Below, piece after piece: positions 9,567 through 19,350 of a stretch of 64,000 nucleotides of DNA; positions within the stretch are counted from its first letter, which is position 1; each line of letters begins with the position of its first letter. A program made the position numbers and the translations under genes. The notes below the pieces were generated by a model. That model was not told where the DNA came from. It did no database searches and worked only from the letters and a program-made list of their open reading frames with translations. The stretch spans positions 2,656,001 to 2,720,000 of the forward strand of contig CM000155.2 in NCBI GenBank assembly GCA_000004695.1, written 5' to 3'. This DNA comes from Dictyostelium discoideum (taxonomy: Eukaryota).

Positions 9567-12500
9567 TTATCTACAAGTTGGAGTATATTTACAACAAGAA
9601 TCATCTTTACATCCTTTAATATTTGGTTTATAATTTTGATTTTCAATGGTAAAACATGTTTTTCCACCTTGTTTTTCACAATGAAGATCTAAACAATCTA
9701 AACATTTGTATTTTGATGGTAAACATTCTGGAATTCCATTAATAACATGACATTCCATTCCACTCCTACAATGATGTCTATCACATAAATGTGGATTACC
9801 TGTACCTGATTCAGTGTAGTGACCTGTACCACCATCTGTTGATGTTGGTGTACCAGTTGTTACACCAGGACAACCAATAGTTTCCTCTGGAATACCGTCA
9901 CCACCATCATTTGCAATGAAACATCTTTCATGTCCAAAAATCAATAAACAATATTGACCTTCAGGGCAACAATCGCATTCATTAACACCAATAGAATGAT
10001 TAGTAGGAGTTTGAGTTGGAGGAGGAGTTTGAGTTGGGGTTGGGGTTGTACAATTGGTAAGTTTTTCATAATAACAATCCCCAGAATATAAGCACTTTAA
10101 AATAAATAAATAATAAAATAAAATGTTAACCACATAATATTAAAAAAAAAAAAGAAAAGAAATAAAAGAATCACTTACATGATCTTTAGTACATGGGTCA
10201 TTATCATCACATTCTAAATGAGTGAAGAAGCATTTACCATCACCAGTGAAATTACAACCATAATGATTACATGTATCTGGAGTAGTGAAACAACCTCCAT
10301 TAGTACAATTCATACAACCCTACATATTAAAAATAATAATAATAATAATAATAATAATAATAATAATAATAATAATAATAATAATAATAATAATAATAAT
10401 AATAATAATAATAATAATAATAATAATAAAAAAGTCAAAACTAAATTATAATAATTAATAATAAAATATAAATAATAATATCAATAACTTACAGTATATG
10501 TATAATGCTCACAACCATATTCTGTACATACATCTGAAGTACAAGCATCATTGTCATCACATGTTGATTCAGTATAATTGTATAAACAACTTCCATCCGG
10601 ACCACAAACTACAGGTAGACACAAGTTTTCTGTGATACAAGGCTCAATTCCACATTCAATACAATTTTTAATTATTGTATGGGTGCATGTTCCATTTGGA
10701 CCAAGACAAGTTTCAGTTGTACAACTTAATCCATCATTACAATCCAAAGGGACTGTTTTACAAGTATCCCCACTATCTGAGCAAATCTGTTGAAAGCAAA
10801 AATCTGTAGTTGTGCATCCAATCCCATTTGTACAATTTTCACAATTTTGAATTATTTCATTATAACCTATATTTTTATTTTTTTATTGTTAAAACATTAC
10901 TTTTTTAAAAAGCTAAATAAAAAACTATATCTTACATTGTCCATTTATACATGAATCTGTTGTGCAATAATTATAATCATTACAAGTTCTATTGGTTATT
11001 ATACAACTATCACCATTTTCTGAACATCTATATTGGATTATATTTTAAAAAAGAGATTAATATTAATTATTATTATTAAAAATATTATTACAAGAAAATA
11101 AAATCAATAATAATTTACTCAACTGGATTACAAAAATCAACTGTAAGACAACCTCTGTTTGTTTGATTACACTTTACACAGTTTTCAATTGGTACAGCTG
11201 TGCATATACCTATTATATTTTTAAAAATGATAGAGAGAGATTTAATTATAATTAAACTAAAATTATTTCATATTATAAAATTAATTTACATACCATCTGG
11301 TGAATGACATTGATTTAAAGTACATGGTTTATTATCATTACAAGTTTTAGGTATACTGACACATGTTGTTGAACCATCAGTTGGACAAGATAATGGTGAA
11401 CATAAATCTAGTGTTATACAATTAAATGTACCACAATCAGTACAATTCTGTAATATTTCATGTGCACAAGTACCATTGGGACTAATACATCTATCATTTG
11501 AACAGGCATTACCATCATCACATACTTTTGGAACTTCTGTACATTTAGTACCATTATCAGTACATCTATTTTATCAGTAAAAAAGGAAATCAACATTTGT
11601 TTTTTTTTTTTTTTTTTTTTTTTTTTTTTTTTTTTTGTAAAAAATCTTACAATTTTTGGTTACAAAGGTCAGTGGTAATACAAGCAAGTCCAGTACAAGC
11701 AATACAATTGTCCAAAGGAGTATGGACACAACCTAAAGTTTCATCACATCTGTGTTATTATTAAAAAAATGATATTGTTAAACAAATAAAAATTAATTTT
11801 CCTTTTTTAATAAATTATAAAAAAACTTACGTATCTACTGTGCAATCATCAACATCATCACAATCTATTGGAATAAATAAACAATGTCCTGCAAAACACT
11901 AAATAGTTTAGAAATTCCATGTTAATAAAATTATAAAAAAAAGTATTTGTGCCATAAAATTGATTATATAATATTTACAAAATCCTTAGTACAAGTTTTA
12001 TTATCATTACATAGAACTTCAGTTAAACATGATTTTCCATCTGGAGCACATCTATTAAATTTAAATATATAATTAGTAATTTTTAAAAATAGAATTTTTT
12101 AAAATCTTTGAATACAAACACTTTAGGATTACAATCATTAGTGGTAATACAACCAGTACCTGCACAATTGACACATTTTGGTATTGGCGTATGGATACAA
12201 ATACCATCTTGACACTTTTTTATTATATTTTATTTTATTAAATTAGTAACATATTAAAAAAGTTTTTACATATAATCCAAAACTTACAGTATCAGTAGTA
12301 CAATAATCTCTATCATCACAATTCTTATTTGATGATACACAATTTCCTTTAGAATCACATCTAATTAATTAAAAAATTAAAAAAATTATTTTAATTAAAC
12401 AAACAAATTAATAAATTAGAACCTTTGAATAACCATAAACATTATATTACATACTTTTGTGGGAAACATAAATCAGTGGTAATACAAGGTCCATTCGAAC

Positions 12501-17500: not shown

Positions 17501-19350
17501 AAATTTTACTTACTGTATCAACAGTACAAAAATTTAAATCATCACAATTCTTTGGTCTAGTTTCACATGATCTTCCATCAGCTGAACATCTAAAAATTAA
17601 AATTAAATATTAAAATCTAATTGGAAGAAAAATAATAGTAATAATAATATTAAAAATAAAATAATTAATTAATTTAATAATTACACTTGTTCATTACAAT
17701 AATCAGTAGTGATACAACCAATATAGGCACAATTGATACAATCTGGAATTGGATCATGTTGGCAAGCATTTATAGTTGAATTACATGAATCTTGGGTACA
17801 ATGATTTTCATTTACACAATTTTTTGGAACAACTGAACAACCAACACCTGGTGTACAAAGACCAACTGTACACTTTATTATTATTGTTGCGTTGTTATTA
17901 TTTTTATAATAAATAATATTTTAAATATTAAAAAAAGATTAGTAATAGGTGATGTTGGATGATAATAAGAATAATAGAAAAACCTATTACTTACTGGTTC
18001 GGTTGAACTGCAATATGGTGCTGAAGTAACGCAAACATTATTTGAACATTTTGCTGTTATACAGTTGGTTCTATAAATTGGATTATTATCACAATTATTT
18101 GGAGTACAACCTAATATAATTAATTTAATTTTTAAAAATTAGTACCAGTATTATTAATTATCTATAAAAAAAAAAAAAAAAAAAAAAAAAAAAAAAAAAA
18201 AAAAAAAAAAAAAAAAAAAAATTATTTTATATATACTTACAAGAAGTACCATCACCTTCACAGACACCACATTCATCATATCGACTTTCAAAAAAAAAAA
18301 TTAGTAAAGGAGTAATAATAAAACAATAATAATAATAATAATAATACATACGGACACTTGAATGCCAAAGATGTTTCAATTCTTATATGAGATTCTACAG
18401 TGTGACGTTCACAATAAAAGAAATCAAATGGATAATTTTGTCCAGGTGTTAAACCCAATAAATCCAAGTTAACACTTGCACTTGCAATTGTATGAATACC
18501 TCCCAAATCCACAACCAAAATATTATTAATAAATACCCAAACATCATCATCACCTGCAAAATTAAAAACATCACCAGTTTTATATTGAAATTCGGTATGA
18601 GCTTGTAAACCTAAATAATTATTTAAATAAATAAATTTTAATTTTAATTTTAATTCTAATTTTTTTTATTTTTTTAAAAATTTTACTTACAAAAGTGGAA
18701 ATTATGTGGATTTCCAAAAGCGTCACGATAAACTCTTTCATTTGGATAAACTGATTTGTCATCAAAACCTTGACCATCAATTACAAAATAAGAATCATTA
18801 CTGTAGGAATAAATATTTGGATTTGAAAGAGATTGTGTAAGAATGATATCTTTTTGAATTGGAAGATTCACACCTGGAACATTGTGAAACCATGATTGGA
18901 ATGTGGTTTGGTTATGAATTGTTGCACTTGGTGAATTACCACAACCTTTTTAAAAAATAATAATAATAATTATTATTATTATTTTTATAAAAAAATAAAA
19001 AAAAATTAATTATTTTTATTAATTTTGGTTTTATTTTAATTTTTAATGTATACATACAATAAACTGGAGTTCCATCACTACCAAGAACTGATTTTACCAA
19101 ATTTTTTTGGACACCAACGGAACCTGAAGCTTCAAAATCTGGGTTTCTTGATGGAGTATTATCATAAATTAATGCATTTAAAACCAAGGCTAAATAAATA
19201 TATTAAATTAAATTAAATTAATAAAAAAAATTTTGTTTAAAATAAAAAAAAAGTTTAATATTTCTATTTTTAATATTTACTATTTTGTGATTCAGATTTT
19301 AAAATAAAAAATATTGAAAATAATAAAAGCATCAATATTATTTTCTTCAT
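14579..19350 (-). CDS. Secreted PA14-domain protein with Dicty_CTDC cysteine-rich repeats; upstream paralogue of the tandem pair. About 19 short exons.
   Basis: Exon 1 is 19350..19281 (MKKIILMLLLFSIFFILKSESQN, donor GTAAAT); exon 2 is 19189..19058 (132 nt, identical in length to the paralogue's exon 2); exon 3 is 18945..18691 (track ORF 18683..18871). The PA14 exon 18610..18352 is 259 nt, identical in length to the paralogue's (track ORF 18288..18518). A CGVCEGDGTSC exon lies near 18243..18287, then there are many Cys-repeat exons (track ORFs 15612..15911, 15094..15546). The terminal exon ends at the stop at 14579 (track ORF 14579..14788), and its C-terminus is homologous to the C-terminus of 9567..14007. 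Confidence 0.7.
15975..16095. repeat. (AAT)n microsatellite of about 40 units, intronic in the PA14/CTDC gene 14579..19350.
   Basis: Direct read. Confidence 0.9.
17227..17323. repeat. (AAT)n microsatellite of about 32 units, intronic in the PA14/CTDC gene 14579..19350.
   Basis: Direct read; this is the source of the spurious poly-Y ORF 17172..17366. Confidence 0.9.

Follow-up and report, generated by a model that had tools for sequence, protein, structure and literature searches.

psiR and psiQ of Dictyostelium discoideum: a probably old, stable and constrained tandem pair encoding predicted secreted PA14/CTDC proteins

The psiR and psiQ genes and their products

The stretch analysed here (the window) is 64,000 nucleotides (nt) of chromosome 6 of Dictyostelium discoideum AX4; it is AT-rich, with about 15-30% GC, and its minus strand carries two head-to-tail genes for proteins that combine a PA14 domain with Cys-rich Dicty_CTDC repeats. 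These are the already annotated psiR (upstream) and psiQ (downstream), and the best explanation of the locus as a whole, held here with considerable confidence, is that they form an old, stable and constrained tandem pair encoding secreted PA14/CTDC proteins. The minus strand was modelled with splice-aware dynamic programming; psiR runs as a single unbroken open reading frame (ORF) from the ATG at 19350 to the TAA at 14579, giving a coding sequence of 2991 nt, and psiQ likewise forms a single unbroken ORF from the ATG at 14007 to its end at 9567. Every intron of both genes is GT..AG, and an exact-sequence look-up matches the spliced translations residue for residue to the UniProt entries PSIR_DICDI and PSIQ_DICDI. 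Both genes, their products and the family are present in dictyBase, RefSeq and UniProt, and nothing is added here to the annotation. The features are collected in Table 1.

Table 1. Features of psiR and psiQ in the window, and loci of three family members on other stretches
Feature	Stretch	Positions	Strand	Remarks
psiR (DDB_G0293286, Q54C31, XP_629235.1)	window	14579..19350	-	18 exons, 17 introns, 996 amino acids (aa)
psiR exon 1, signal peptide (MKKIILMLLLFSIFFILKSESQN)	window	19281..19350	-	70 nt; followed by a phase-1 intron
psiR exons 2-4, PA14/fibro-slime domain including GDDDVWVF...VVDLGGIH	window	18352..19189	-	132, 255 and 259 nt
psiR exon 5, (P)RYDECGVCEGDGTSC motif	window	18241..18284	-	44 nt
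psiR exons 6-17, Cys-rich Dicty_CTDC region	window	15196..18110	-	12 exons; exon size grows toward the 3' end
psiR intron 16, paralogous counterpart of the lost psiQ intron	window	15559..15674	-	same column and phase in all psiR orthologues
psiR last exon, Thr/Pro-rich linker and Cys-rich C-terminal domain (GHYTESGTGNPHLCDR...)	window	14579..15100	-	522 nt
Intergenic spacer, psiR stop to psiQ start	window	14008..14578	-	571 nt; A/T homopolymer runs of 40 and 60 nt
psiQ (DDB_G0293288, Q54C32, XP_629234.1)	window	9567..14007	-	18 exons, 17 introns, 985 aa
psiQ exon 1, signal peptide	window	13941..14007	-	67 nt
psiQ exons 2-5, PA14/fibro-slime domain	window	12980..13871	-	132, 185, 64 and 259 nt
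psiQ intron 3, the "extra" intron	window	13363..13464	-	102 nt, phase 0, donor GTGTGT
psiQ counterpart of the psiR 44-nt exon	window	12843..12886	-	same length
psiQ exons 7-17, Cys-rich Dicty_CTDC region	window	10179..12755	-	11 exons
Site of precise intron deletion, psiQ exon 16 (10866..10493)	window	10708..10709	-	374 nt = 158 + 216
psiQ last exon, counterpart of the psiR C-terminal exon	window	9567..10094	-	528 nt
D. firmibasis P0010	L012	3001-7050
D. purpureum P0014	L006	8001-10767
1492-aa paralogue	L005	3001-9147

A preliminary description of this DNA, made from the letters alone, had proposed head-to-tail minus-strand paralogues with a common exon structure, and the models agree with it in outline and in detail: its gene coordinates, its equal-length exons of 132 and 259 nt, the continuous psiR exon 3 (18945..18691) and the psiQ intron at 13363..13464 are all correct to the base, and the 44-nt exon, which it did not list, is also of equal length. 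Its assignment to the Psi/DicA-type family holds literally, the exact matches being PsiR and PsiQ. Short repeat exons exist as it described; psiR has 13 and psiQ 12 exons lying between the PA14 exon and the last one, rather than about 15. The unbroken 255-nt exon 3 of psiR corresponds in psiQ to 185 and 64 nt around the 102-nt intron; the donor GTGTGT of that intron yields the 985-aa product and restores equal spacing with psiR. A GTTATA donor 6 nt downstream was dropped, since GTGTGT reproduces the annotated protein and the paralogue spacing; retention of the intron would introduce an in-frame TGA according to the ORF list.

Introns are 67-172 nt long in psiR (median 95) and 60-173 nt in psiQ (median 84), with a GC content of 4-18% against 26-43% for the exons, the signal-peptide exons excepted (10-14%). 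The three longest introns (166-173 nt) contain (ATA)n or (AAT)n microsatellites of 33-52 copies, and A/T homopolymer runs of 40-60 nt occur in other introns and in the intergenic spacer; the microsatellite and homopolymer intervals are 10324-10480, 15989-16097, 17225-17324, 11596-11636, 16775-16827, 18166-18221, 14075-14114 and 14206-14265.

Orthologous loci were taken from D. citrinum, D. firmibasis, D. dimigraforme, D. cf. discoideum and two more D. discoideum strains. The psiR-psiQ pair lies between Tfb2 and the NatB subunit gene in five taxa; the gene order is TIP49 - Tfb2 - psiR - psiQ - NatB_MDM20 in L001-L004 and in the window, and the L007 and L008 stretches, which hold only the Tfb2-side neighbour, psiR, psiQ and NatB_MDM20, keep the same order. 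Because this neighbourhood is the same across related taxa, the duplication is placed before those taxa, and on this comparison the tandem duplication is old. Synonymous divergence among the taxa reaches about 0.5-0.85, and the ratio of nonsynonymous to synonymous change between orthologues (dN/dS, Nei-Gojobori) is 0.21-0.56 for psiR and 0.26-0.37 for psiQ, and both copies are under purifying selection. psiQ evolves about twice as fast as psiR at both synonymous and nonsynonymous sites (68% vs 82% identity between AX4 and D. firmibasis). No genome examined has a broken ORF, among seven for psiR and six modelled for psiQ, and the Cys positions are conserved. The pair and its 17-intron architecture date from before the divergence of the D. 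discoideum species complex and have stayed frozen. In strain ACTFIT (L008 2001-11735, 99.4% identical to the window) the deposited annotation joins psiR and psiQ as the 1945-aa P0127; this fusion is almost certainly a read-through artefact of annotation, since neither the intergenic spacer nor the second signal-peptide exon is disrupted.

Both proteins consist of a signal peptide, a PA14/fibro-slime β-sandwich domain of ~235 aa, a short CGVCxGDGxSC motif, a stalk of Cys-rich modules, a Thr/Pro-rich linker and a Cys-rich C-terminal domain. The PA14 and Dicty_CTDC assignments of the preliminary description are supported by Pfam PA14 (E=2.6e-12 for psiR and 3e-13 for psiQ, above cut-off), by the fibro-slime model TIGR02148 (E=3.6e-38 and 8.5e-39; 130-132 bits against a cut-off of 45), by Pfam Dicty_CTDC (PF00526; 47.5 and 35.5 bits against a cut-off of 27, in five stretches of psiR and four of psiQ) and by the predicted PA14 fold. 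The 44-nt exon encodes an invariant YDxCGVCxGDGxSC, whose Cys and Gly residues are unchanged in a 32-sequence family alignment. The signal peptide, encoded by its own exon in both genes as that description had stated, is the sole strongly hydrophobic 19-residue window of PsiR, and PsiQ likewise has one at the N-terminus only; a hydrophobicity scan found no transmembrane segment and no hydrophobic C-terminus in either protein, and with no hydrophobic segment besides the signal peptide both are predicted to be secreted. The Cys content is 12.4%, and there are nine N-x-S/T sites in PsiR and 15 in PsiQ.

An AlphaFold2 model of psiR residues 23-258 has a mean predicted local distance difference test value (pLDDT) of 94 and a predicted template modelling score (pTM) of 0.91; Foldseek places it next to 26 PDB matches at E <= 1e-3, nearly all of them PA14 domains, whose sources include inserts of GH31 xylosidases, the sugar-binding domain of a Marinomonas RTX adhesin and the yeast Cea1/Flo/Epa adhesins. 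A sequence search of the PDB with the N-terminal domain gave no significant match. Residues G150-D151-D152-D153 are invariant in the 32 family sequences, the DDD lying in a conserved PA14 strand motif; this GDDD may be the counterpart of the Ca2+-binding DcisD motif of yeast PA14 lectins such as Flo5.

The C-terminal exon is the best psiR-psiQ match at the DNA level (81% over 272 nt; 75% over 278 nt for the PA14 exon). Its domain appears to be nearly specific to the psiQ/psiR-type subfamily: among 130 collected proteins it is found only in psiQ and psiR orthologues and in D. firmibasis P0010, and only six proteins matched when 1.8 billion representatives were searched exhaustively, P0003 and P0010 among them. 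P0132 (190 aa) covers nearly the whole domain; P0131, P0133 and P0134 match only a ~40-aa repeated module of it, which occurs 35 times in P0131, a 2346-aa VWD-type protein. A word-indexed homologue search with the C-terminal 112 aa as query gave no match. Within the domain (14579-14917 in psiR, 9567-9900 in psiQ) the ~40-aa module resembles the Cys-rich eggshell-membrane-protein (CREMP) module, with the consensus C-x4-C-x2-G-x2-C-x4-G-x-P-x-C-x-P; the match of the C-terminal exon to the CREMP module 9pgb_A (E=6.4e-6) is short, ~45 residues, and dominated by Cys, and homology of the two modules is uncertain.

Intron positions in the pair and its family

Introns were placed on protein alignments of the paralogues and orthologues. 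psiR and psiQ have 12 positions in common and five private to each, where the preliminary description had counted one extra intron, and all of these positions are fixed across orthologues with a single exception in psiQ. The differences would most likely reflect old differential loss, including loss of a PA14-domain intron in the psiR stem lineage that is taken up below. Intron 11 of psiR (16714-16832) and intron 12 of psiQ (11566-11650) are both in phase 2 and are offset by 15 nt (five codons) in all orthologues; the codons concerned, CNxK(I/L), are homologous yet lie on opposite sides of the intron, and therefore a simple slide of the splice sites does not explain the offset.

The exception is a position between 10709 and 10708 in psiQ, at which D. 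cf. discoideum, D. citrinum, D. firmibasis and D. dimigraforme have a phase-0 intron of 76-96 nt that separates ...ACTGAAACT from TGT...; AX4 and strain ACTFIW are without it and the flanking codons are unchanged, and its paralogous counterpart in psiR is retained (Table 1). The comparison shows one recent, precise intron deletion in the D. discoideum lineage, which was overlooked in the preliminary description. The lost intron is the 16th of 18. D. discoideum has undergone 441 precise intron losses, biased away from the 5' end, for which a cDNA-mediated mechanism has been argued (Ma et al., PMC4683709); the 3'-proximal loss in psiQ would fit this mode, common in the species, and would provide a clean and datable case of it.

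In the wider family the number of introns varies strongly: psiR and psiQ have 17 each, the 1492-aa paralogue and D. firmibasis P0010 have 20 and D. purpureum P0014 has 13, while psiA has two, psiK four and a Heterostelium homologue one. An intron follows the signal-peptide exon in all eight family genes mapped; its exact column is common only to four intron-rich genes. Nearest to psiR and psiQ are the paralogues of 1480-1530 aa (P0004, P0006-P0008) and P0010, which are 45-56% identical to them and equally intron-rich (20); they share with psiR and psiQ the introns after the signal peptide, between HNFHF and C, and between KC and P, but differ in genomic location, in extra repeat blocks and in that most of their intron positions are private. 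The psiQ/R-type C-terminal domain is absent from the 1492-aa clade and present in P0010. D. discoideum has roughly 12,500-13,500 genes. Its extant introns number 15,510 (PMC4683709). With about one intron per gene elsewhere in the genome, the intron-rich PA14/CTDC branch is an outlier.

It is possible, though doubtful, that the intron differences in this subfamily arose mainly by repeated gain, with the PA14/CTDC genes serving as a local hotspot of insertion. Besides the spread of intron numbers (13-20 in five genes against 1-4 in psiA, psiK and the Heterostelium homologue), this is suggested by positions that barely overlap among the intron-rich paralogues: there are ~20 distinct sites in roughly 260 PA14 codons, and an ancestor with all of them would have had exons of ~40 nt. 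Two different micro-exons also surround GDDD: P0010 has one of 18 nt (GDDDVW) and P0014 one of 21 nt (KFTGDDD), and their boundaries differ and are unambiguous. The 15-nt offset of psiR intron 11 relative to psiQ intron 12 belongs to the same picture. Against repeated gain stand the lack of any signature of a mechanism (intron-intron similarity beyond microsatellites, target-site duplications or a proto-splice preference), the genome-wide excess of losses, which far outnumber gains in D. discoideum (PMC4683709), the absence of any changed position within psiR and psiQ across five taxa, one loss excepted, and the uncertain alignment of distant paralogues in the repeat region. An introner-like or transposon origin was rejected: all-against-all blastn of 54 introns gave only (ATA)n/(AAT)n microsatellites above shuffled controls. 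Target-site duplications and AG/GT proto-splice sites at the intron borders were not found beyond chance. Old differential loss is set against a tentative alternative in which the intron-rich psi branch might record repeated spliceosomal intron gain; either introns were exceptionally dense in the ancestor of the family or new ones were gained repeatedly, which is a lead and not a finding. A family with so little intron overlap could serve as a test case for gain versus loss in Amoebozoa.

Register and stability of the repeat array

The repeat unit of the stalk is a double module of ~58 aa, and in the 5' part of the array each exon corresponds to half of it; exons with half-module 1, xC(S/G)xDGxxCxxxPKxCDDxxxCTxDx, alternate with exons of half-module 2, CxxGxCxHxxIxxCxxCxxxxCITTDxCxPxx, and ~nine Dicty_CTDC-type double modules make up the stalk of each protein. 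The 5' exon pairs are of two types, one of 73-76 nt (phase 2 to 0) with 95-101 nt (phase 0 to 2) and the other of 92 nt (phase 2 to 1) with 85-91 nt (phase 1 to 2); phase symmetry (2 to 2) is thus a property of the pair and not of the single exon, and the pairs sum to 177, 168, 192 and 180 nt. Introns of the repeat region lie at a Cys codon or one codon before it in 22 of 25 cases (psiR 11 of 13, psiQ 11 of 12; binomial P about 1e-4 and 2e-5), so that their placement is nonrandom. As the introns recur at two fixed register positions and the pairs sum to multiples of 3, an exon pair duplicated in tandem would have given rise to the array long ago, and the array would have been frozen afterwards.

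The idea of one repeat per exon, as put forward in the preliminary description, therefore holds for the half-module, and most introns do sit at module boundaries as it had said; it fails for the Pfam Dicty_CTDC unit, which straddles an intron. The best match to that unit (psiR 452-475, NCDDGDDCTFDSCSSTVGCIHTNI) spans the intron between CTxDx and C, and the exons are out of the Pfam register. Toward the 3' end exons of 262, 363, 272 and 374 nt carry 3-6 half-modules, and together with an exon of 301 nt they depart from the one or two modules per exon that had been expected.

From this layout the same description had concluded that the loci are prone to exon shuffling and unequal crossing-over. 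That the loci are kept in flux in this way, or by gene conversion among repeats or between the two copies, is very unlikely, even though duplication or deletion of a phase-symmetric pair, being a multiple of 3, would keep the reading frame. Exon count and length are near-invariant in the genomes compared (psiR, seven; psiQ, six), where a few internal exons differ by 3 nt and the first and last exons vary more in length than the internal ones. Alignment of PsiR with PsiQ and a comparison of strains and species, in line with checks that the description had suggested, give 57.5% protein identity, colinear proteins with an equal module count, a pair and exon architecture that are retained, and no trace of continuing exon shuffling in these genomes. 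Strain ACTFIT aligns to the window in one block of 10.1 kb at 99.4% identity; the repeat exons are only 60-75% identical to one another in DNA, without homogenisation, and Tandem Repeats Finder reported no coding tandem array in the locus. The remaining support for flux is the 171-nt core of the C-terminal exon, which is 88-90% identical between psiR and psiQ in the D. discoideum clade and 77-79% in the other species. Most of this contrast is explained by the rapid evolution of psiQ in D. dimigraforme and D. firmibasis, and orthologues still group together in the segment; psiR-psiQ gene conversion was considered for this core and is not demonstrated. Having one exon per module need not, on its own, make a locus unstable.

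The PA14-domain intron, relatives and function

The psiQ intron at 13363..13464 was described at first as gained or lost recently, on the grounds that the two copies in the AX4 window differ at this site. The intron follows GFDxK and is present, at 68-102 nt, in psiQ of AX4, ACTFIW, D. cf. discoideum, D. citrinum, D. dimigraforme and D. firmibasis, and it is absent from all six psiR orthologues; since its state is fixed in six psiQ and six psiR across the synonymous divergence given above, the change predates the split of the five taxa. The 1492-aa paralogue also has an intron in the same column and phase, and a recent gain in psiQ or loss from psiR is thus highly improbable. Loss in the psiR stem lineage is probable from these comparisons. 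A neighbour-joining tree built on the PA14 domain recovers three clades with good support each: psiR, psiQ and the 1492-aa group. D. purpureum P0014 was considered as an outgroup and set aside, as it is non-syntenic with mostly private intron positions and does not polarise the psiQ/psiR differences.

Several families share parts of the PsiR and PsiQ architecture. PsiA has the same family name in UniProt and dictyBase, a signal peptide, the PA14/fibro-slime domain and the invariant motifs GDDDVWVF, DLGG.H, FFYCERH and CGVC.GDG.(S/T)CC; it differs in its length of 557 aa, in the absence of a Pfam Dicty_CTDC match, in having two introns and in an identity of ~43% that is confined to the PA14 quarter of psiR. 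DicA1/PsiF, PsiK and the membrane-type Psi proteins of ~700 aa have, like PsiR and PsiQ, a PA14 domain followed by PF00526 Cys-rich repeats, but the DicA1/PsiF and PsiK group is ~30% identical, has shorter repeats, is without the GHYTESGTGNPHLCDR-type C-terminal domain and is intron-poor. The ~24-aa Cys-rich repeats, C-DDG-x2-C-T-x-D-x-C-x4-G-C, are shared with EcmA/EcmB-type matrix proteins (Dicty_CTDC, PF00526). Bacterial fibro-slime proteins of Fibrobacterales, Myxococcales and others have PA14 cores 40-63% identical over 9-25% of psiR, and some bacterial proteins also carry PF00526 repeats; matches include P0067, P0072, P0097, P0107, P0110 and P0115, from Fibrobacterales, Myxococcales, Kofleriaceae and Binatia. 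TraA of Myxococcus has been compared with PsiA and DicA1 (PMC3325183); the bacterial fibro-slime and TraA proteins differ from PsiR and PsiQ in being prokaryotic and intron-less, with other accessory domains and sorting signals. The PA14 lectins of yeast (Flo/Epa/Cea1) and of the Marinomonas RTX adhesin are among the best structural matches to the psiR model, other top matches being PA14 inserts of GH31 alpha-xylosidases and a yeast beta-glucosidase (Foldseek probability 0.9-1.0, and 1.0 for the PA14 lectin and adhesin domains at the top).

PsiA is described as a secreted prespore-inducing glycoprotein and DicA1/PsiF and PsiN as exposed signals (PMC11574339, PMC4931340, PMC3325183); the activity of PsiA is credited to Kawata 2004 and Yamada 2010, as cited in PMC11574339 and PMC12821622. 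DicA1/PsiF-type proteins are extracellular or exposed and serve as developmental signals (PMC3325183, PMC4931340), and published phenotypes are given only for PsiA, PsiF and PsiN (PMC4931340). A literature search found neither gene identifier in the main texts of the papers searched, and the matches listed for the names psiR and psiQ were unrelated uses. In a 2026 life-cycle proteome (PMC12821622), PsiR is detected by mass spectrometry in a cluster that peaks at culmination and in the fruiting body and that also includes spore-coat and matrix proteins. By analogy with PsiA and DicA1/PsiF, PsiR and PsiQ would be secreted, O- and N-glycosylated proteins of the late-development matrix or signalling milieu, in which the PA14 head would bind carbohydrate and the repeats, knotted by disulfides, would serve as a rigid spacer; PsiR in particular would be a late-development, predicted secreted protein with a lectin-like head.

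The preliminary description had allowed that the loci might be fragmented pseudogenes; decay of one or both genes, with exons only seemingly in frame, would agree with the faster evolution of psiQ and its absence from the proteome tables searched, and has a negligible probability given that all 17 junctions in each gene keep frame, that the ORFs are intact and the Cys positions conserved, that dN/dS of psiQ is low and that PsiR peptides are detected.

Some points weigh against the reading of psiR and psiQ as an old, constrained pair of genes for secreted PA14/CTDC proteins. The splice junctions rest on conservation and on the match to annotation. TM-scores of the psiR model to solved PA14 domains are low (0.25-0.38, with 9-15% sequence identity to the PA14 lectin adhesins), and the psiR domain is therefore considered to be a divergent PA14 variant. 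The sister grouping of psiR and psiQ has a bootstrap value of only 46%, so that the polarity of the PA14-domain intron is not fully secure, and the intron may instead have been gained in an ancestor common to psiQ and the 1492-aa clade. PsiQ was not found in the searched portion of the proteome tables of PMC12821622, and the ligand, localisation and signalling role proposed for both proteins are drawn from relatives.

The pair is flanked by housekeeping genes for a NatB_MDM20 subunit, Tfb2/p52, TIP49/RuvB-like and ribophorin I, listed at 6418-8745 (-), 20500-22068 (-), 22243-24001 (-) and 25204-26211 (+), in an order as in related species. Scans for tRNA and Rfam RNA detected neither anywhere in the 64-kb window. 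At 40303-42843 (+) a single long ORF encodes, by Pfam, both a PIF1-like helicase domain and a U-box domain at the C-terminus, which is an unusual pairing.

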